From: a virus
Lineage: Duplodnaviria > Heunggongvirae > Uroviricota > Caudoviricetes
Virus record (IMG/VR): IMGVR_UViG_2690316166_000024
Strand: one strand, 5' to 3'
Length of the DNA: 10,558 nucleotides
Position 1 is the stretch's first letter. Each line of letters begins with the position of its first letter. The notes below the pieces were generated by a model. It was not told the origin of the DNA, did no database searches, and was given only the letters and a program-made list of their open reading frames with translations. Of the stretch, positions 1 through 10,558 are shown piece after piece. The position numbers were made by a program, and so were the translations under genes.

Positions 1-219
1 TCACATCCACATAATTTGCTGCCCTGACGGCAACGGGTGCGGCCTTACGGCGTGGACTTCTCCCGGCTTCACGATGTATCGCTGTACCGACTCATAAGTG
101 ATGAACGTGGCGCTGCAATTCACGTTCTGGCACTGGTGATAACGCTCTTTTGTCGTGTCAGTGATATAGCGACTTGTACGCGCATGTGCGGCATGCTGGC
201 ATAAAGGACAATGAAACAT
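1..219 (-). CDS. ogr: Late gene transcriptional activator Ogr (C4 zinc-finger)
   Basis: 72-aa product MFHCPLCQHAAHARTSRYITDTTKERYHQCQNVNCSATFITYESVQRYIVKPGEVHAVRPHPLPSGQQIMWM with a Cys-x2-Cys...Cys-x4-Cys motif, recognised as P2 Ogr. Start is ATG at 217-219 (minus), preceded by SD GAGGTG (complement of 225-230); stop TGA is complement of 1-3. The 93-aa ORF in the track is an upstream in-frame extension lacking an RBS. Confidence 0.93.
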   Translation of the reverse strand: MFHCPLCQHAAHARTSRYITDTTKERYHQCQNVNCSATFITYESVQRYIVKPGEVHAVRPHPLPSGQQIMWM

Positions 220-300
220 CGCGAGCACCTCTTCCGGTTTTGTTGATGGTGCCATTTTAGTTAATTTATCCTTATAAAACAAACAGATAAATAAACCACG

Positions 301-1493
301 TCACTCATCATCTTCTGTTTCGTACTCCACATCAGAAAGCCTTACCTCAAGCTCCAAGGACGTCGTGAAGCCGCTATTATTGAGACAATGTGTCACCTTA
401 GTGATGGTCCAGTCCTGCTCGTCTATGACGCGCTTAAAGCCTGACACTTTAACCGGTGTTTCCGTGTAAATATCTGCACGACCGGTAGCCAGGCTGATGG
501 AGAACTCCGCTACACCCCGTTGCAGTTTATCCCACTTCGCCTGAGCGGCGCGCATGGCCTGCGCTTTTGTGGCATATACCGTGGTCAGGGCAAAAACGTT
601 GTCAGCTTCACCGGCCATGTATTCACCTTCGCGCGCTTCCGGTACTTTTGGCGCTTTCTTCTGCGTGACCGGTTTCGCTTTCGGGTGCTCCAGTGCGCGC
701 AGGTGTTTTTCTTTCTTTTTGCGTTTCAGTTTTACCTTCTGCTTTTGCGGCTTCGGGTCTTTGGTGTGTAACCACTTTGCCGTTACGCCGGTGTAAGCTC
801 CACGGTCAGCAATCGCAAAATGATGACGGTCGCCGTCGCTGCGGGTGATGGTAATCTGCGGGATTTTTTTACCGCTGGCCGTCACCCCCTGCCCCGCTTT
901 GAGAAACAGCAGTTTTCCCATTTTTACCGACACNNNNNNNNNNNNNNNNNNNNNACCGACACCTCGCCGCCGTTGCGTTCAGCAAGACGGGTCAGGAATT
1001 TCGCATCAGACTCCTGCGACTGGTCGATGTGTGGAATTTTTATTCCGGCCAGTGACGGAGCGACACTGGCTTCCAGCCTGTTACGGGAGGCTATCGCCTC
1101 AACAATCGCACCGAGCGTAATGTCATGCCATGAGCCTTCACGGCGGGAATTGAGCGTCCCGCGAAAATCTGCACTCCGGGCGCGGATGGTGACCACATCC
1201 GGCGCGCCCCGGTGTTCAACCTCATCAACGGTAAATTTCCCTTTGCATACCAGGGCAAAACCTTTCCAGCCGATATACACCGTCAGGACAGCGCCACGAA
1301 CCGGCAGCCCGACCTGCCCGTCGGCATCGTTCAGTTCAATATCAAGCTGGTCAGCCTCAAAGCCCCGGTTATCCGTCAGGGTCATGCTCATCAGACGGTC
1401 GCTGATATTGCCGGTAATATCCCTGCTGTCGAGCATCAGCATGTAATCCGGCGTCAGCGTACTGCCTGCATCAAATGTCAGCGCATCCAGCAT
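301..1493 (-). CDS. D: Tail protein gpD, interrupted by a 21-nt N-run that is probably an assembly artefact
   Basis: Track ORFs 924-1493 (MLDALTFDAGSTLTPDYML...GGEVS) and 301-933 (VSVKMGKLLFLKAGQ...) are the N- and C-terminal parts of P2-type gpD. They sit in different frames only because of the N-run plus a duplicated 8-mer. Removing 29 nt (21 N plus one ACCGACAC copy) restores one 387-aa ORF. ATG at 1491-1493 overlaps the gpU stop. Confidence 0.88.
934..954. other. Assembly gap or masked bases (21 N) flanked by 8-bp direct repeat ACCGACAC (926-933 and 955-962)
   Basis: Run of n characters seen directly in the sequence, with an identical 8-mer immediately on each side. Confidence 0.95.
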
Positions 1494-1972
1494 TATCCCG
1501 CCCCCGTCATACCCGTGAATTTAGTCGCCATACTGCCAGCCTTACCGATGAGCGATTCCGCCTGTTTACCGATATCGCCATAAAGCGCGGCCAGTGACTC
1601 ATCAACGCGGGTGAGCGACAGCGTAAAATCAATTTTCCGTGGTGTGCCGTCTGCAAAGAAAATACTCCCTGTTTCACTCACCTTGCTGATGACATACATG
1701 CCGTAAATCATGCCGGTGCCATCCAGCAACGGCCACGCCCGGCCTTCCTCTGCCATCAGTCTGAGCGTGGTCATCGTCAGCTTTCCGCCAGTCAGTTCGG
1801 GATAAAGCACACCGGCAAGTGTGATGTTCTCCTCACCTACACCGAGAAACTGATAGGCATCCCGTTTACCGATACGGGAATTTGACGGCCAGCGATAATC
1901 TGATTCACGCTGCATGGTCTGGTGTGGCAGCGTCTGGCGCATAAAAACAAACATACCTAACGCGAGCATCAT
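1493..1972 (-). CDS. U: Tail protein gpU
   Basis: 159-aa ORF recognised as P2-type gpU. Strong SD AGGAGGTG (complement of 1980-1987) lies 7 nt upstream of the ATG at 1970-1972. Stop TAA (complement of 1493-1495) overlaps the gpD ATG, consistent with translational coupling. Confidence 0.93.
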   Translation of the reverse strand: MMLALGMFVFMRQTLPHQTMQRESDYRWPSNSRIGKRDAYQFLGVGEENITLAGVLYPELTGGKLTMTTLRLMAEEGRAWPLLDGTGMIYGMYVISKVSETGSIFFADGTPRKIDFTLSLTRVDESLAALYGDIGKQAESLIGKAGSMATKFTGMTGAG

Positions 1973-1986
1973 TTTTCGTCACCTCC

Positions 1987-4434
1987 TTAACCGTCATGCA
2001 TCATGCTGGCACGGGCGCGCGCACGTTTATCCCGCTCGTATTTTTCGAGCGCATCCTGTAACTGGCGGTCAAGCTGTGTCCCCGGTGCAGTACCACCCGT
2101 CAGGCTGATGTGATATTCGTTTTTACTCTGGTCCACATAAGAGCGGCCAGCCGGTGCCGTGACCGGCTGATAAGCCTGATAGCCTGCATAAGAGCTGGTC
2201 GCCGGAATATAACCACCGGTGCCATACGTGGCGGCATGAGTTCTGGCGGCGGTCTGGTCAAGTGTGTCTGACTCTTTGTTGATGACCCCGAGCTTTTCCA
2301 GTACCCAGTCAATGCCGCTGCGCAATTTGTTGAACGCATTAAGCGGCAGCATCAGCGCGTCAGCCAGTGCCTGCCCGAACATGACGCCCGTGTCACGGCA
2401 ACGGTTCAGGGTGTCCTGGGTGGCTTTGACCGGGGCAATCAGGTTTTTAAACCACTGCCACGCAGCCTGTAACTTTTCGCCCAGCCAGTCAAACACCGGT
2501 TTCAGTGGCGTGAACAGCTCCCCCACCGGCGCAAATGCCGCTTTCAGCCCTTCAACCACACCGCCAAAGAATGCGCTGACAGGCTCCCAGTATTTACGGA
2601 TAAGCAACGCCCCGGCGACAATGGCGGCCACCACAGCCACAACCGGCCAGCTAATCGCCCCGATGGCCGTCATAACGGCACTACCAACCGTCGTGAAGAT
2701 TGCCCCCATTGCGCCTGCTGCCGCGATGATGGCATTGATGCCGGTGATAACCGGCCAGGCTACAAGACCAATTGCACCGATGATGCCAGTCAGCGCCAGC
2801 GCGCCACCGGCAATGAGGCCAATGGTTGACGCCAGTGATTTGTTTTTCTGTACCCAGCCGTCGAGTTTTAACACATACTTTGTGGCCGTCTGCGTGAGCT
2901 TACGTAGCGCGCCTTCCTGCTGGTCAAACAGGTCTGTCCCCACCGCCTCATAAGCGGACTGAAACTCCTTAAAGTCACCGCCGAGGTTGTCCTGCATGAT
3001 ATTTACCAGCTCTGCGGTCTTCCCGTCTGAGGCTTTAAACGCAGCGGTCAGTTTGTCCAGCTTTCCGGTTGACGCGGCAGTCATCAGCACAGCGGCGGCT
3101 GAGCTGGCCTCCTCCCCGAAAATGGTTTTCATGTATTCGGCCTGCTGGGCAGTACCGAGCCGGTTTTTCTCAAAGCTGGCCTGCATTTCTTTCAGAATGG
3201 TAAATACTGGTCGGGTGTTTCCCTTACTGTCTGAGGTTTTCACGCCAAGCTCTTTGAGTGCATCCCATGCTTTTCCAGTCGGTGCCTGCAGGCGACTTAA
3301 CACGGCACGGCTTCCCGTCCCCGCCATTGAGCCTGTGATTTTTGCATCATGCAGCGCCCCGACCATTGCGGCGGTTTCTTCAATGCTGACACCGGCATTT
3401 TTTGCCACTGGTGCGGCATAGGTCAGCGCATCGCTCATGCCGTCAAAATCAGCGGCGGTTTTGTTCATCGTCATGGAGAGAACATCCCCGATATGAGCGA
3501 CCTTATCGTTTGAAAGCTGAAAGGCGGATTTCATCCCCATCAGCAGGGCGGCGTTTTCTTCCATTGTGCGGCGGTTCGCCAGCGCCATATTCAGCGTGAC
3601 CGGCGTTGCCGCCTGAATGGCATCAACATCCCCACCCGCTTTCGCAATGATAATCTGTGCACCGGCCGCATCATCCGCTGAGGCGGCGGTGTTGTCACCG
3701 AGCTGGCGCGCCTGCTTGCGGAGTGCAGCCATTTCGGCGGAGTCTTTTGCCACACCGAGCACAGCCTGCAATTCTGAGTTTTTCTGCGCAAACTCATAAC
3801 CTGGCATCAGCAGCTTAACTCCGGCTATCGTTCCCGCAGCAGCAATCCCCACACCGGCAGCGCCCACTGAGGCCATATTTCCGGCCAGTTCCTTTCCGGC
3901 CTGATAACGCTGTTTGACTGCGTTAAGTTTTGCCTGTTGCGCACTGACACGCGCCAGCGCGTCACGCTGCCGGTTAAGCTGGGCGGTGGTTTCACTGATA
4001 CGGTTTTTCAGTCCCTGCTCATCATGTGCAAGATTGCGGGTATTAATTCCCACAGCGGCCAGTTCCCGCTGCTGGCGTTTAACGGAATCTGTCAGGCGGT
4101 TATATTTCGCCTGTAAGTCCTCCGCCGCACGCTTTGCGGATTCCAGCACTTTCGCCTGAGCACGGGTCGGGCGTTCGGTGTTTTTAAACTGTGTGGCAAG
4201 GGCTTCGGCCTCCTGCCGTGCCTTTTCAAGTGCATGACCAGTCACGGCGAGCTGTGCACTGGTCTTGCGGAATCCCTCAATACGGGATGCGTGACCGTTC
4301 AGCTCGCGCAGTGATTTTTGTGTTTCCCGGATATCCCCCGACAGCAACTTACTCGCTCTGCGGATGGATTTAAACGGGCGGGACGCCTGGTCAACAGCCC
4401 TGAGCAATACCTGTAATTTTACATTGTTACTCAT
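1987..4434 (-). CDS. T: Tail tape measure protein gpT
   Basis: 815-aa ORF with a coiled-coil-like N-terminal half and long Ala/Gly/Ile-rich hydrophobic stretches typical of tape measure proteins. Length equals P2 gpT. Sits directly downstream of E/E' with an 8-nt overlap with the E' stop. Confidence 0.93.
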   Translation of the reverse strand: MSNNVKLQVLLRAVDQASRPFKSIRRASKLLSGDIRETQKSLRELNGHASRIEGFRKTSAQLAVTGHALEKARQEAEALATQFKNTERPTRAQAKVLESAKRAAEDLQAKYNRLTDSVKRQQRELAAVGINTRNLAHDEQGLKNRISETTAQLNRQRDALARVSAQQAKLNAVKQRYQAGKELAGNMASVGAAGVGIAAAGTIAGVKLLMPGYEFAQKNSELQAVLGVAKDSAEMAALRKQARQLGDNTAASADDAAGAQIIIAKAGGDVDAIQAATPVTLNMALANRRTMEENAALLMGMKSAFQLSNDKVAHIGDVLSMTMNKTAADFDGMSDALTYAAPVAKNAGVSIEETAAMVGALHDAKITGSMAGTGSRAVLSRLQAPTGKAWDALKELGVKTSDSKGNTRPVFTILKEMQASFEKNRLGTAQQAEYMKTIFGEEASSAAAVLMTAASTGKLDKLTAAFKASDGKTAELVNIMQDNLGGDFKEFQSAYEAVGTDLFDQQEGALRKLTQTATKYVLKLDGWVQKNKSLASTIGLIAGGALALTGIIGAIGLVAWPVITGINAIIAAAGAMGAIFTTVGSAVMTAIGAISWPVVAVVAAIVAGALLIRKYWEPVSAFFGGVVEGLKAAFAPVGELFTPLKPVFDWLGEKLQAAWQWFKNLIAPVKATQDTLNRCRDTGVMFGQALADALMLPLNAFNKLRSGIDWVLEKLGVINKESDTLDQTAARTHAATYGTGGYIPATSSYAGYQAYQPVTAPAGRSYVDQSKNEYHISLTGGTAPGTQLDRQLQDALEKYERDKRARARASMMHDG

Positions 4435-5441: not shown

Positions 5442-6632
5442 TTAATTGCTGTTAACCGAGGTGACCAGATTTGCCAGGTATTTATCGGTAATACGCTGGC
5501 GCAGGGTCAGGTTTTCAAGAGGAGGCACCGGGGTATAGTCGTAGTCGATATACAGTTTTCCGGCCTTGAGGGTTTCCGCATCGTTGGATTCTTCGCTGAA
5601 CCAGCAGGTCGCATCCACGATATAGCCGTTTGTTTTCAGCTCACGGAATTTGGCATTGATGCCGTCAACGATGTCGCGAATCAGCGTTGCGGTGATGGGC
5701 TTGTCCACCGCCCACATGTGCGCCTCAGCCATCGTGTCGGCCAGCACCTGCGCGGTGCGGGTGTAGTTTTCAAAGAGGAACAGCGGGTCATCAGAGCAGG
5801 TACGGTTACCCCAGAAGCGGAAACCGTCACGGCGAATCAGCGTTGTGACGCCTGACTCGTTAAGCAGGTCAGCATCGGTGCCGGACTCCTGCAAATCCCA
5901 GAATACGGACGCGCTGATGCCGGTAACACCGTTCACCCCGACGTTGGACAGCGTTTTATGCCAGCCCTGCTCCTGGTCGATTTTAGCGCGCAGACCCAGC
6001 GCACGGGCGGTGGCATACGCGGTGGCGGTGGTACTGGCGACCGTATCCCATGCGAGGAAATCCGGCCAGATGACCATCAGCTCACGCTGGCTGAAATTCT
6101 GACGGTAGGCTTTCACCTCGGAAACGGTCTTACAGCCCCATGCGCTGATATACCCGAAAGCGCGCAGCTTCTGACAGACTGATGCCAGTGCAACAGCCAC
6201 CTCTTTGGTGTCCAGTCCCGGCACGCCGAGAATACGCGGTTTAACACCGGTTACCGACTCCGCCGCCAGCAGGGCTTTCAGTCCGGTGTACTGACCGTTT
6301 TCGTCGGTGGTGCCGATGATATTGGAAACGGTCTGCGCGAGTTTCGTTTCCTCGTCGTCGCCGGTGCCGTCTTCCACACGCACGACAACGGTGACCGGTT
6401 TTGACTGGTCGGCGATGGCCTGCAACGATGCCGCCAGCGTGCCTTTTTTACCGGCCTTTGCAATTGCGCTCTGCACATTGGTAATCAGCACCGGTTTATT
6501 GAGGGGGAAGGTTTCCGCATCCGCATCGCTGGCCGTGCAGACCATGCCGACAATGGCAGTGGATACGGTGGAAATGACGCGGGTGCCGTCGTTAATCTCC
6601 AGCACCTGCACGCCGTGATGATAGTCACTCAT
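5442..6632 (-). CDS. FI: Contractile tail sheath protein gpFI
   Basis: 396-aa ORF MSDYHHGVQVLEINDGTRV..., recognised as P2-type FI sheath. SD GGAG (complement of 6641-6644) precedes the ATG at 6630-6632. Confidence 0.93.
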   Translation of the reverse strand: MSDYHHGVQVLEINDGTRVISTVSTAIVGMVCTASDADAETFPLNKPVLITNVQSAIAKAGKKGTLAASLQAIADQSKPVTVVVRVEDGTGDDEETKLAQTVSNIIGTTDENGQYTGLKALLAAESVTGVKPRILGVPGLDTKEVAVALASVCQKLRAFGYISAWGCKTVSEVKAYRQNFSQRELMVIWPDFLAWDTVASTTATAYATARALGLRAKIDQEQGWHKTLSNVGVNGVTGISASVFWDLQESGTDADLLNESGVTTLIRRDGFRFWGNRTCSDDPLFLFENYTRTAQVLADTMAEAHMWAVDKPITATLIRDIVDGINAKFRELKTNGYIVDATCWFSEESNDAETLKAGKLYIDYDYTPVPPLENLTLRQRITDKYLANLVTSVNSN

Positions 6633-6735: not shown

Positions 6736-6756
6736 ATGCGGGCAATTCGCCCGCAT
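6736..6756 (-). terminator. Putative intrinsic terminator for minus-strand transcription (GC-rich hairpin plus U-tract)
   Basis: 8-bp stem ATGCGGGC (6736-6743) pairs with GCCCGCAT (6749-6756) around a 5-nt loop. On the minus strand it is followed by TTTCTTTATCTGTTGTTTC (complement of 6717-6735). Would stop G/H-operon read-through (antisense to the cargo gene) just before the FI promoter region. Confidence 0.45.
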
Positions 6757-6773
6757 GTCCTGATTTGTACACA
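6756..6773 (-). promoter_or_regulatory. TGT-N12-ACA dyad, candidate Ogr-dependent late promoter element for the FI-FII-E-T-U-D operon
   Basis: Exact TGT(6756-6758)-N12-ACA(6771-6773) match, about 130 bp upstream of the FI start codon. P2 late promoters are described as carrying such a dyad centred near -55. Precise transcription start and -10 not identified. Confidence 0.35.
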
Positions 6774-6971
6774 CTCATTTTCCGACTGACAGTTTACATA
6801 GCCCAAACGCTATCAAATCTGACAGCCTGCTATGAGCGAAAAGCGTTAAATCTCACGATATCTGCTACCGGGAAAAATTTCGATTATCTTCGATGGGAAC
6901 TTTGATAATGTAGTAAATGCCATTTTCAGCGATCACTTTTCAAGCGTGTGTAAATGATTAATGTTAAAAAA

Positions 6972-7001
6972 TTGACTTCACTGAAATAAGGTTGCTAGTA
7001 T
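6972..7001 (+). promoter_or_regulatory. Putative sigma70-type promoter for the cargo gene
   Basis: TTGACT (6972-6977), 18-bp spacer, then TG-n-TAGTAT (6993-7001), in AT-rich DNA about 40 bp upstream of the cargo ATG. SD AAGGA at 7032-7036 lies 6 nt before the ATG at 7043. Hand-scanned, so low confidence. Confidence 0.3.
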
Positions 7002-7042
7002 TTTTGGAGCAACCATTAATGTTTTTTATTTAAGGAATGTAA

Positions 7043-8461
7043 ATGACATACGCACTGATTGATAATTCAACTCTAACTGCAGTCCAAAGAATCGAGGGGA
7101 AAGTAAAAACAAGATCGAAGGACTCAGTAGATACAGACATAATAGCATTTGAGAACTATATACAGTCTATTTTGTTCTATGATCACGTTATCGCGGTTGA
7201 TGATTATATTCCAGAGTACCGTGGGAGTAGGATTTCAAGTTTCAGAGAGATATTATTTCTTGATAAAGCACAATATGGGTTGGATGAAATTGAAAGTGAA
7301 GCAAAAAAAATATCTGATGCATTGAAACCTAAAATTCGTGGTGGAACATTTGTTAATGACGATTTTAAAAAACTAATTGAACTTCTTCAGACACATATCA
7401 TATGTACATGGGACATTAGTTCAAGTGTTTATCATCTAACACTGAAGAACTTATCTGATGGAGGTAAGGAGTTTGAAAAATATGGTAACATTGCTGCTGC
7501 CATTTTTTCAGAACTGCGTGATGCTGCTGAGTCTGGTAATAGAACAAATGGCGATGTTGAACTTCTCGATCGATTTGGCAACCCTATTCGCAAGGGGTAC
7601 AAAGTTCCCGGAGCAAAATGGGGGGATGGCACATCTGCTGGTGAAGCATCAGATGCAATCAAAGCATTCGTGGCTTCGCTTGTATGGCTGGCTAATCGGG
7701 CAGTATTTTATTCTCTCACAGCTAAGTACCTTCAAGCAGATACTTTTTTATATCCATTACGTCAGGCGTATCAACAGACATATTTAAGCCAAAACTGTCA
7801 GTATGGTTTTGACTATGCTAAACATATTGTAGAAAACTTTTCCACTTCGTTAAGTCATGATCTCATTGATATTCATTCTGGTGGTAAAGCTGTAGCAACA
7901 GCAACTTCGCTTCCTTTATTTTCGGCATGGCTCGCAAAAGAAACTGGTGATCCAAGTTGTATTGTTGAAGCTGCTTATAACATAAGGGACAACAACGAAT
8001 TTGTAAGGGCCCGTGAGAAAATGCGAGAAATAAAGCGCTTGTTTGATGAAAATGAATTGCCTCAAGCTAATAAGTCAGTAAGAGCATTGCTTACTGAAGT
8101 ATCGAAAGAATCAGATTATATTCGAACTAAGTATGGGCTCAAGACTAGACAAGGTGTACCTGTAACTAAGCTTGTACATGTATACAATACTGTTGCGGCT
8201 ATTAATTCCCTTCCGAAACTACCGACCTTTAATTTTAAAGTTAAAGTTCCTGATTTCTTATATGATCTTAAAAAACCCAAGGGGTTTCGTGCTCTCTATC
8301 GAAATTTGACTAATGATCTTTCTACTGTGTGGTCGTTAGGAGAAGCTCGAGATATTCTTGGAAGTAAAGTTGTGATAGATAATCATGCAAGAATTTACAG
8401 TCCGAAGCATGAAGAACCGCGTTTCAAAAACTCTCATTCCCCATATAAGAGCCCGATGTAG
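7043..8461 (+). CDS. Hypothetical 472-aa protein; cargo (moron) gene at the Z/fun-position hotspot between G and FI; candidate anti-phage defence or superinfection-exclusion protein
   Basis: Long uninterrupted ORF on the strand opposite to all phage late genes, with a good SD and ATG and a strongly AT-rich composition against GC-rich neighbours. No transmembrane segment, Walker A motif or other signature I can recognise by eye. The only hint is an R-x5-H (HEPN-like) motif at residues 450-456 near the C-terminus. Homology to P2 fun(Z) cannot be judged without a search. Confidence 0.85.
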   Translation: MTYALIDNSTLTAVQRIEGKVKTRSKDSVDTDIIAFENYIQSILFYDHVIAVDDYIPEYRGSRISSFREILFLDKAQYGLDEIESEAKKISDALKPKIRGGTFVNDDFKKLIELLQTHIICTWDISSSVYHLTLKNLSDGGKEFEKYGNIAAAIFSELRDAAESGNRTNGDVELLDRFGNPIRKGYKVPGAKWGDGTSAGEASDAIKAFVASLVWLANRAVFYSLTAKYLQADTFLYPLRQAYQQTYLSQNCQYGFDYAKHIVENFSTSLSHDLIDIHSGGKAVATATSLPLFSAWLAKETGDPSCIVEAAYNIRDNNEFVRAREKMREIKRLFDENELPQANKSVRALLTEVSKESDYIRTKYGLKTRQGVPVTKLVHVYNTVAAINSLPKLPTFNFKVKVPDFLYDLKKPKGFRALYRNLTNDLSTVWSLGEARDILGSKVVIDNHARIYSPKHEEPRFKNSHSPYKSPM

Positions 8462-8499
8462 CTTAAGAAAAAGACACGCCCACCTTGTGCGTCTACTTC

Positions 8500-8541
8500 T
8501 GGCACAGAGCGGACTCTCAGATTAGGCTTTACTCTGTGCCA
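8500..8541. repeat. 10-bp perfect inverted repeat TGGCACAGAG / CTCTGTGCCA separated by 22 nt, between convergent cargo gene and gene G
   Basis: Seen directly: 8500-8509 is the reverse complement of 8532-8541. Lies 39 nt after the cargo stop and 35 nt after the G stop on the other strand. No U-tract follows, so it is not a canonical intrinsic terminator. Confidence 0.5.
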
Positions 8542-8575
8542 TAGATATGTAAGCTCACACCAGAGCTCATACAAC

Positions 8576-9103
8576 TTATTGCGGCATTTCCGGCCATTCA
8601 GGATTTGCAGGATCCACACGACTGACCAGAACACTGTAGCGTTCCCATGCCTCCAGTCGACTGCGCTCCTCATCTGTTGCCATATTCAGCCTGACAGCGC
8701 GCTCCAGCGGCAAAATCACGGATTCAGCATCTGCAAGAAGTCTGGCTTTCCGATTTTCTGCCTGCTGCTGCAATTCCTCTGCCGTATAAATTCGTTTAAT
8801 CACTGTACAGTCCTTAAACATCCAGTTCCCTGAAATGTCCGCCCGTCGGTTAGCAGTAATATCCGGCACTTCAACAACACTTAATCCATCCGGTCTGATA
8901 GCTGTCACATCCTTTTCCACATAGCGGATAATATTATCTTTGTCGTACGCTATTTTTATCGTGTCATCAGCAAAATACTTTTGTTCTTCGTACCAGTTCT
9001 TACCATCTTCTGAAAAAAACCAGACAACATCAAAGTCCTTTGTCAATTGATATTGTTCAACCGTTTTTGGATTACCTGCCGTTATATTTATCAAATGCTG
9101 CAT
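8576..9103 (-). CDS. G: Tail fibre assembly protein gpG
   Basis: 175-aa [43 protein letters not shown]..., recognised as P2-type G. Starts 3 nt after the H stop. Confidence 0.92.
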
Positions 9104-9106
9104 AAA

Positions 9107-10558
9107 TTATACCTGTGCCACGTTATACCAAGTCCCGTTAATGTATTTCTGCACCGGTCTGTAATATACGCCACCAATGTTATCGGCAGAGTTTGAGCCG
9201 GTATCCTGAACAATAATGCCGGAATATACACACCCGGACGGTGCCTGATGTGTCCATGTCATACCATTGTTCGCAGGTTTGTATGTGGCAGCACCACCAA
9301 GCCGGATATCCCGGACATAGCGTGAATCAAAGTTGCCATAGTTAGATGGTGATACCTGCCCGTTAACAGCAAAAGTGATGCTGTTATCTGTATTTCTCTG
9401 ACTGTAAAAATGCCAGCCTGCATCATCACCTAATTCAGCCACCACAGGACGACTTGAGTTTCCCCACAAATTGAATGCGGCTTCCTTCGTGGATGTATTG
9501 CTGCTGCTGACCGTGAACTTTTTCCCGCTACCGGCACGTACTTTGGTACTTGAGACAATATCACCTGTAACACTCAGGCCATGCCCCATTGACACTCCGC
9601 CATTGGCGTTATTGATAGTCAGCGGTCTTAAGCCGTTCCATGTCCCAAATTTATCGCCAGAGGCCGTCAGCATTAAATATGTGCTGCCGCCATCATTCCT
9701 GATAAAGAATCCATAATTGCCATAAGCAATGCGCAGACCATTAGCACTGAGTGATGTAATTTCACCTCTTGAACGGAGACCATAAGCGGAGCTGAGTGAT
9801 AATTCTTCCTGAGCGTCATTGTTTCCTGTCGCCCAGCGAATTACCCCGCCCTGAACTGTTTCATGCCAGATAGTATCTCCTTCTCCACCACGAAACTTTC
9901 TGAGATATTTTTTGCCGCCTCTGGTGCCTGAACATAAGGCCGTAGACATATAGGCATTCTGGCTTCCGCCATCCTGATTAATCGTTCCGGTCATTGAGTC
10001 GCCCTGACGATTCCAGTCACGACGCCAGCCGGGGGAGTAGCCGTCCCCATGATTTATGTAAGTGAATTGCGCGCTGGTTGTACCGCCACCGCTTGATGTT
10101 GTTGGCGTGGTCACTCGGATAGTGATTGCAGATTTAGTTCCCATGACCTCGACGACACAACCAGCCAGGTGGATATCACCACATCCGGTATCCGTAATGA
10201 TTTTGTTATTTGCATATGACCAGGAGCCTTTGCACATCCAGTACGGATGATTAAATGCACCACGGGAATCCAGCCATTCAATAAACTGAGCGGTTGTCCA
10301 GTTTCCGGCTTCAGTGCTCAAAGCGCCGCTATAAGCACGACAGGCACCGATATTTTTCGTGAAGGTATCCTTTCCCGGAATATCCGCACCGTTCTGATCT
10401 TTCTGAAGACGTTTTTCAGCATTGTCATAGGCAGACTTCACTGCTTTTGGCGTTGCGGCCAGCGTTTCAGAATCGCTGTTGATGGCACTACTTAGCTGGA
10501 CAAGACCTTTTCGCGCTGTGGTGGCATCCTGTGCAGTGTATTTCCCGTTAGCAAGGTC
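9107..10558 (-). CDS. H: Tail fibre protein gpH (partial; N-terminus lies beyond the window)
   Basis: The minus-strand frame is open to the window edge: complement of 10501-10558 reads DLANGKYTAQDATTARKGL..., continuing into ...LVQLSSAINSDSETLAATPKAVKSAYDNAEK..., a tail-fibre repeat region recognised from P2 H. The track's Met at 10441 is internal. Stop is complement of 9107-9109. Confidence 0.88.
   Translation of the reverse strand, partial: DLANGKYTAQDATTARKGLVQLSSAINSDSETLAATPKAVKSAYDNAEKRLQKDQNGADIPGKDTFTKNIGACRAYSGALSTEAGNWTTAQFIEWLDSRGAFNHPYWMCKGSWSYANNKIITDTGCGDIHLAGCVVEVMGTKSAITIRVTTPTTSSGGGTTSAQFTYINHGDGYSPGWRRDWNRQGDSMTGTINQDGGSQNAYMSTALCSGTRGGKKYLRKFRGGEGDTIWHETVQGGVIRWATGNNDAQEELSLSSAYGLRSRGEITSLSANGLRIAYGNYGFFIRNDGGSTYLMLTASGDKFGTWNGLRPLTINNANGGVSMGHGLSVTGDIVSSTKVRAGSGKKFTVSSSNTSTKEAAFNLWGNSSRPVVAELGDDAGWHFYSQRNTDNSITFAVNGQVSPSNYGNFDSRYVRDIRLGGAATYKPANNGMTWTHQAPSGCVYSGIIVQDTGSNSADNIGGVYYRPVQKYINGTWYNVAQV

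Follow-up and report, generated by a model that had tools for sequence, protein, structure and literature searches.

What does a solitary gene do on the opposite strand in the middle of a block of phage tail genes? The question is raised by a 10,558-nt stretch of viral DNA (IMG/VR record IMGVR_UViG_2690316166_000024; "the window" below means this whole stretch), which represents the tail-gene block of a P2-like prophage and in which all long open reading frames (ORFs) lie on the minus strand with one exception, an AT-rich gene for a 472-aa protein. The analysis of its borders, relatives, predicted structure and genomic neighborhoods suggests that this protein is probably a defense gene product acting against other phages or foreign DNA. 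As a whole, and with the mechanism included, we tentatively propose a self-contained, mobile, one-gene "moron" expressed by the lysogen, which would protect its host by a PIN-like nuclease coupled to a C-terminal sensor.

A one-gene cassette in the Z/fun slot

In the alignments to P2 (NC_070904) and to the "proviral Z-region" of P2-EC67 (AJ512685), the homology to P2 ends at 6839–6842 and restarts at 8492–8495. These borders coincide with two segments annotated in AJ512685 as inverted repeats bounding the Z region, so the insert is exactly coextensive with the Z/fun slot between G and FI, in agreement with an earlier reading made from the sequence alone (hereafter the sequence-only reading). 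The corresponding features are:

~6758–6842: counterpart of the second Z-region repeat (annotation of AJ512685)
6843–8491, no strand: AT-rich cargo cassette of ~1.65 kb filling the P2 Z/fun variable slot (P2 homology borders, base composition, same unit found outside P2)
7043–8461, plus strand: 472-aa ORF with an ATG start, identical to WP_000220361.1 ("hypothetical protein") and a member of PHROG 13435
8492–8600, no strand: conserved P2 segment, the "left inverted repeat" of the P2-EC67 Z region (95% identity to the repeat_region of AJ512685)

The 472-aa ORF is the sole ORF of the ~1.65-kb insert, and in other P2-like phages the slot is taken by a different gene, on the opposite strand. Among complete E. 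coli genomes the flanks are present in 1661 of 5426, the 472-aa cargo in only 7. At the borders of the insert, a search for repeats and recombination sites returned only the conserved P2 "inverted repeat" segments, with no convincing repeat pair within the window. The G+C (GC) content is 0.33–0.42 over 6800–8400 versus 0.52–0.60 in the tail genes, and 0.38 over the gene itself versus 0.54 in the flanks, which bears out the AT-richness noticed earlier. The gene model is sound, because both termini (MTYALIDN at the N-terminus, KSPM directly before the stop codon) recur in homologs. The Z/fun locus has been listed among the P2 defense loci (PMC13586616). In P2-EC67 the slot encodes a "putative lysogenic conversion protein" (ORF1; 380–1291 of locus L055) with an Mrr_cat restriction endonuclease domain (E 4e-5), a further hint that the slot holds nucleases or defense genes.

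A rigid and widespread family

A word-indexed search identified 282 relatives of the 472-aa protein, and 266 were identified at E<=0.001 when 1.84 billion cluster representatives were searched exhaustively; about 270 clusters at 50% identity share its length and ends. Complete members are nearly all 460–475 aa long, can be aligned over their whole length and lack additional domains. When one genome per species was scanned, 43 loci emerged, in taxa that include Enterobacterales, Pseudomonas, Vibrio, Halomonas, Nitrospira and Cyanobium as well as Verrucomicrobiota, Chloroflexota, Clostridia, Bacteroidota and Armatimonadota. The gene maintains a GC content of 37–43% in hosts of 53–61%, and its ratio of nonsynonymous to synonymous substitutions (dN/dS) is 0.06–0.17 against the orthologs from Lonsdalea, Pantoea, Serratia and Pectobacterium. 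The family is unusually rigid and widespread, and almost all its copies are intact. The few disrupted homologs (L021, L024, L037 and a truncated copy on P. aeruginosa megaplasmids) would fit a chance or decaying ORF devoid of function, a reading to which we attach practically no probability: it has no specific support, since AT-rich DNA gives long ORFs less easily, and it is opposed by the ~270 clusters of common length and ends, by the low dN/dS and by the confident, compact AlphaFold model (pTM, the predicted template-modeling score, 0.87). Conservation excludes a meaningless ORF.

Residue conservation was counted over 60 sequences down to ~20% identity. Invariant residues are D7, R16, G19, D32, P238, R240, P291 and R324, and near-invariant ones T10, E37, D47, D53, D54, Y55, R63, W123 and S128. 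R450 and H456, which had been recommended for mutagenesis in the sequence-only reading, turned out to be variable across the family. The strict conservation of length and sequence across at least 10 phyla should make mutagenesis and testing in E. coli easy.

Comparison with known families and with fun(Z)

The sole profile match of the 472-aa protein, over its full length, is PHROG 13435, an entry with no function assigned. At E<=1 there was no match in Pfam, NCBIfam or PADLOC-DB 2.0.0 (2023), the last covering known anti-phage systems; PDB sequences gave chance-level matches only, in single-sequence and family-profile searches alike, and the comparison of 60 divergent members with Pfam pointed to no consistent family. 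WP_000220361, several locus tags and phrog_13435 are absent from the searchable literature and from the supplements of DefensePredictor and of Rousset et al. 2022. The earlier impression of a protein without a known family is upheld by these searches, and the novelty lies in this family, whose sole fold resemblance is a weak PIN-like domain; we call it undescribed relative to the Pfam, NCBIfam and PADLOC 2023 models, systems named after 2023 being outside the sequence screen.

Could the protein nevertheless be the product of P2 fun(Z), the T5 exclusion gene, or of a diverged allele, as the sequence-only reading also proposed? The two genes share the G–FI slot with the same conserved flanks, and both are single, non-essential cargo genes. 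However, one-to-one BLASTP against the 299-aa P2 Z-region protein gave an E-value of 0.19 over 58 residues, the proteins differ in length (472 vs 299 aa) and the genes in strand, tblastn of the 472-aa protein against 50,697 phage records returned no match, and its relatives are spread over many phyla in contexts other than P2. At the level of sequence a fun(Z) allele is excluded, and we regard this identification as exceedingly improbable; what survives of the proposal is the Z/fun cargo of no known family.

The gene moves alone

The unit that is transferred is larger than the ORF: 200 nt upstream and ~32 nt downstream are conserved together with it in Lonsdalea, Pantoea and Serratia, where the copies reside on the chromosome amid housekeeping genes, on a mobile island and on a conjugative element, respectively. 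In Lonsdalea and Pantoea this promoter–ORF–tail unit recurs outside the P2 context. The homolog from Vibrio vulnificus (7001–8419) is one cassette of a chromosomal superintegron, directly flanked by attC-like repeats (L053, 6845–6972 and 8426–8549). Clustering of 385 neighboring ORFs (>=70 aa) revealed no partner gene common to the loci beyond the synteny of related Pseudomonas loci. The gene thus moves alone, and the family uses three vehicles, namely prophage hotspots, integrative and conjugative elements (ICEs) and integron cassettes. Plasmid copies are rare (4 records, one truncated beside insertion sequences (IS) and resistance genes).

The V. vulnificus homolog resembles the anti-phage cassettes of sedentary chromosomal integrons in that it forms one attC-bounded unit within a long array, with a compact one-gene format (10.1101/2024.07.02.601686). 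In contrast, that study used cassettes of V. cholerae N16961 and did not report this family, its text containing neither "vulnificus" nor "472" (10.1101/2024.07.02.601686). The superintegron around the homolog (protein P0041) is marked over L053 1–15419, and also in L052, by ~120-nt attC-like repeats every 0.5–1.5 kb, with 26 core copies; the neighboring region of L052 contains a P2-type Phage_GPA replication gene, an Mrr_cat protein and a protein kinase. On ~500-kb plasmids of P. aeruginosa (L057, 6007–7008) a 333-aa copy without the N-terminal PIN-like domain adjoins IS elements and the msr(E)/mph(E) resistance genes, with a DEAD/DEAH helicase upstream; it is probably a truncated remnant.

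Predicted structure and a putative PIN-like domain

AlphaFold2 modeling with 42 close sequences reached a predicted local distance difference test score (pLDDT) of 70.5; with the 60 divergent sequences it yielded a compact single body with pLDDT 82.6 and pTM 0.87, in which the segments 268–280 and ~385–415 are poorly predicted. Two parts can be distinguished:

7043–7453, plus strand: N-terminal alpha/beta domain (residues 1–137), PIN/VapC-like by predicted fold, alternating beta-alpha, pLDDT ~90
7454–8458, plus strand: C-terminal region (residues 138–472), mainly helical with a few small sheets and no recognizable fold

The N-terminal domain holds the invariant D7, R16, G19 and D32 and the near-invariant E37, D47, D53, D54, R63, W123 and S128, while P238, R240, P291, R324 and the conserved K-x-P-M end belong to the C-terminal region, for whose 330 residues no structural match was found. 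The extreme C-terminus is itself conserved as S-x-x-K-x-P-M (residues 466–472) directly before the stop codon, with P471 in 51 and M472 in 46 of 60 sequences, and residues 469–471 form a beta strand in the better model (pLDDT ~93), which suggests a structural or regulatory role.

Mapping by eye from the predicted secondary structure makes a PIN layout of the N-terminal domain plausible. D7 is placed after strand 1 and E37 within the long helix that comes next; D/N105 stands at the start of a helix, and T122-W123-D124 at the end of a strand resembles the PIN "T-x-D" motif. The first two candidate acids are nearly perfectly kept (D7 in 60/60; E37 in 56/60, with D in the other 4); at position 105, the candidate third, D is found in 30, N in 7 and E in 6 of the 60 sequences, an acidic residue being present within 105–107 in 55/60, and the candidate fourth, D124, is found in 41/60.

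Several results weigh against this assignment. The Foldseek search against PDB gave no match (best E 0.2), and neither the 472-aa protein nor any of the 60 divergent members matched a Pfam PIN-clan family at E<=1. The hhalign comparison of the N- and C-terminal profiles with the alignment of VapC(fMet), whose sequence was checked against 3TND, gave no signal (probability 0.4%), a weak negative because this alignment is shallow, with members >=73% identical. Moreover, only about half to two thirds of the sequences have an acidic residue at positions 105 and 124, D32, D47, D53 and D54 being better kept. The predicted model lends the PIN-like fold assignment modest support.

The VapC-type PIN ribonucleases (PAE0151, 2fe1; VapC20, 5wz4; Shigella VapC, 6sd6) thus differ from the 472-aa protein in several respects: it has no sequence, profile or Foldseek match to them, and its family keeps the third and fourth acidic residues only in part. 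VapC is a 130-aa stand-alone toxin, whereas here a further 330 residues of no known fold are attached to the domain. Nor does a VapB-like antitoxin adjoin the gene, the insert holding one ORF and no neighbor family of >=70 aa being common across the loci.

How might such a protein act? We envisage that the cassette rides in the Z/fun hotspot as a "moron" expressed by the lysogen and that a single polypeptide would serve as both effector and sensor. The N-terminal PIN-like domain may function as a metal-dependent nuclease via D7, D32, E37 and D54 together with D/N105 and T-W-D124, which are only partly conserved; judged from the VapC-type PIN toxins, RNA would be its most likely target. The remaining 330 residues on the C-terminal side (with P238, R240, P291 and R324) would hold the nuclease silent until a cue from infection releases it, and the freed nuclease would halt the phage through abortive infection or growth arrest. 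Metal-dependent nuclease chemistry, which we infer from the predicted fold and the acidic residues, is a tentative assignment. What the analysis itself shows is the position of the gene, its mobility and conservation, that it has no partner gene and that its homologs have defense-rich surroundings; defense, substrate and trigger are inferred from these. Or perhaps the protein serves defense or conflict through an N-terminal Rossmann-like domain that is not a nuclease, and instead binds or processes nucleotides (depletion or modification of NTP or NAD, sensing of a signal) or mediates protein–protein interactions? We consider this alternative rather unlikely.

Genomic neighborhoods and the case for defense

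A defense-type neighbor was found within a few kb of the homolog at roughly half of ~35 inspected loci, evidence that is suggestive rather than statistical. The Pantoea homolog is accompanied by an OLD-family nuclease and a relaxase; the Pectobacterium homolog by a HEPN_Toprim_N/RiboL-PSP protein, CcdA, TacA and a CTD1-MComp1-SMC set; the Desulfotalea homolog by MksBEF. Neighbors in Pseudomonas include Hachiman (Cap4_nuclease-HamA and helicase), a giant DUF4365-TPR-PIN protein, and PIN_8, AAA_13 and ResIII proteins, and those in metagenome-assembled genomes (MAGs) include SIR2_2, a TIR-CHAT-AAA-TPR protein, a type I restriction-modification subunit, a Fic protein and a PLD-ResIII-DUF3427 helicase. 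The PADLOC tally of 144 neighbor proteins contained a few MADS, WYL and AriA-like matches and was not used quantitatively, as many of the models match generic domains. The gene has been found in settings typical of defense hotspots and mobile cargo, i.e. the P2 Z/fun slot, ICE cargo and a superintegron cassette.

A 1321-aa DUF4365-TPR protein with a weak PIN-TPR-GreABC match is encoded ~220–640 nt upstream of the homolog on the same strand at 4–5 Pseudomonas loci (L028, L029, L031, L036), and at 3 Pseudomonas loci a 719–762-aa protein ending in a SEC-C motif follows the homolog on the other strand. This arrangement could reflect shared synteny or a clade-specific multi-gene island.

The published record provides a context for cargo of this kind. 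Six of 8 randomly chosen unknown genes from P4 hotspots protected against phages (PMC13586616). The single-protein defense genes of P2 and P4 hotspots (the DUF4238 protein of Rousset et al. 2022, PMC9122126; the unknown-gene systems of PMC13586616) are likewise single genes in a variable locus of a prophage or satellite, are exchanged between elements and had no recognizable defense domain before testing. Unlike the 472-aa gene, known here from sequence alone and matching no PADLOC 2023 model, they have been validated by plaque assays, and most of them originate from the P2 old/tin locus or the P4 hotspot.

Does the gene have to act against phages at all? It could be cargo of another accessory or selfish kind, for instance an addiction or stabilization module, an anti-defense factor or a factor of phage-unrelated lysogenic conversion. 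No phenotype is known for the family, and homologs in Acinetobacter, Lonsdalea and several MAGs lie amid ordinary housekeeping genes, which counts against a role in defense; only ~18% of the tested V. cholerae superintegron cassettes of unknown function proved to be anti-phage (10.1101/2024.07.02.601686), and the variable loci of P2 also hold partition systems and toxins (PMC9122126). On the other hand, known defense genes of differing systems repeatedly adjoin homologs in unrelated phyla, the slot is that of P2 fun(Z), no antitoxin-like gene is adjacent, and the predicted structure shows neither a secretion signal nor a membrane segment. A role outside phage defense appears unlikely on this balance, and defense remains the function that we favor.

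With defense as the probable function, the protein may be the founder of a broad, undescribed family of single-protein immune modules, each a cryptic, diverged PIN-like nuclease joined to a sensor or regulator of 330 residues with a fold unseen in PDB, without partners, distributed from Proteobacteria to Clostridia and Cyanobacteria and spread via prophage hotspots, ICEs and integrons; we offer this generalization with considerable reserve. The finding is unsurprising in kind, since a defense role is what one already expects of unknown genes in P2/P4 hotspots. If the protein is protective, it would represent a compact, host-independent immune module (1.65 kb, one gene, its own promoter) with a sensor part without structural precedent, and it would help to establish the little-studied Z/fun slot of P2-like prophages as a second defense reservoir beside the old/tin locus. 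If it is not, what remains is a gene that has been widely transferred and whose role is yet to be assigned.

Expression signals

The sequence-only reading ascribed to the gene its own promoter-like and Shine-Dalgarno signals, of which the latter holds up well and the former less so. The candidate signals are:

6756–6773, minus strand: TGT-N12-ACA palindromic dyad TGTCCTGATTTGTACACA in the conserved P2 segment upstream of FI (pattern search)
6843–7042, plus strand: conserved 200-nt upstream region (promoter/leader) travelling with the gene (80% mean column identity over five loci of four genera in differing contexts)
6972–7001, plus strand: sigma-70-like promoter candidate TTGACT-18-TAGTAT with an upstream TG (consensus scan)
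7033–7036, plus strand: Shine-Dalgarno AGGA, 6 nt 5' of the ATG (read from the sequence; GAGG/AAGGA kept in the cassette alignment)

Matches to the promoter consensus are not above chance (4 found vs 5.3 expected in shuffled sequence), and in related cassettes the -35 element of the candidate is kept and the -10 element is not. The 200 nt 5' of the ORF are conserved as strongly as the coding sequence (seen also in L006, 9804–10000, and L049, 6800–7000), with blocks that include AATCTTACGATATCTGCTACC and CTGATAATGTGGTAAATACCATTTT and could be operator sites for a regulator. The search for an RNA element in this region gave no Rfam match, and the consensus fold is weak, without meaningful covariation. 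At the other border, the dyad at 6756–6773 stands where the Ogr-dependent late promoter PF is presumably located. A minus-strand GC hairpin followed by a T-run (6756–6726) directly abuts it and is predicted to terminate those transcripts of the H–G operon that would run antisense through the cargo.

Flanking tail genes and the source prophage

The flanks had been described as conserved P2 tail genes on the minus strand, and Pfam matches together with the RefSeq annotation corroborate this:

left end of the window, minus strand: ogr (P2-type match)
minus strand: gpD-like late control gene and U (P2-type match)
1987–4434, minus strand: tape measure (Pfam PhageMin_Tail)
minus strand: E/E' and tail tube (P2-type match)
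5442–6632, minus strand: FI, tail sheath, left flank of the insert (Pfam Phage_sheath_1 and 1C; 97.7% DNA identity to P2)
8576–9103, minus strand: G, tail-fiber assembly, right flank of the insert (Pfam Caudo_TAP; RefSeq annotation)
9107–10441, minus strand: H, fiber gene (P2-type match)

An identical stretch is found in E. coli 89-3156 (NZ_CP027366), inside a P2-like prophage adjoining yegQ, where the 472-aa ORF bears the annotation WP_000220361.1. In the window a run of 21 N at 934–954 (masked or unresolved bases) splits the gpD-like late control gene into the ORFs 301–933 and 924–1493; in E. coli 89-3156 the gene is a single unbroken coding sequence of 1164 nt. The other P2 hotspot of the 89-3156 prophage, between the portal and replication genes and outside the window, encodes an Old-like "ATP-dependent nuclease" (L001, 36855–38327), so that this lysogen would carry cargo in both variable loci.
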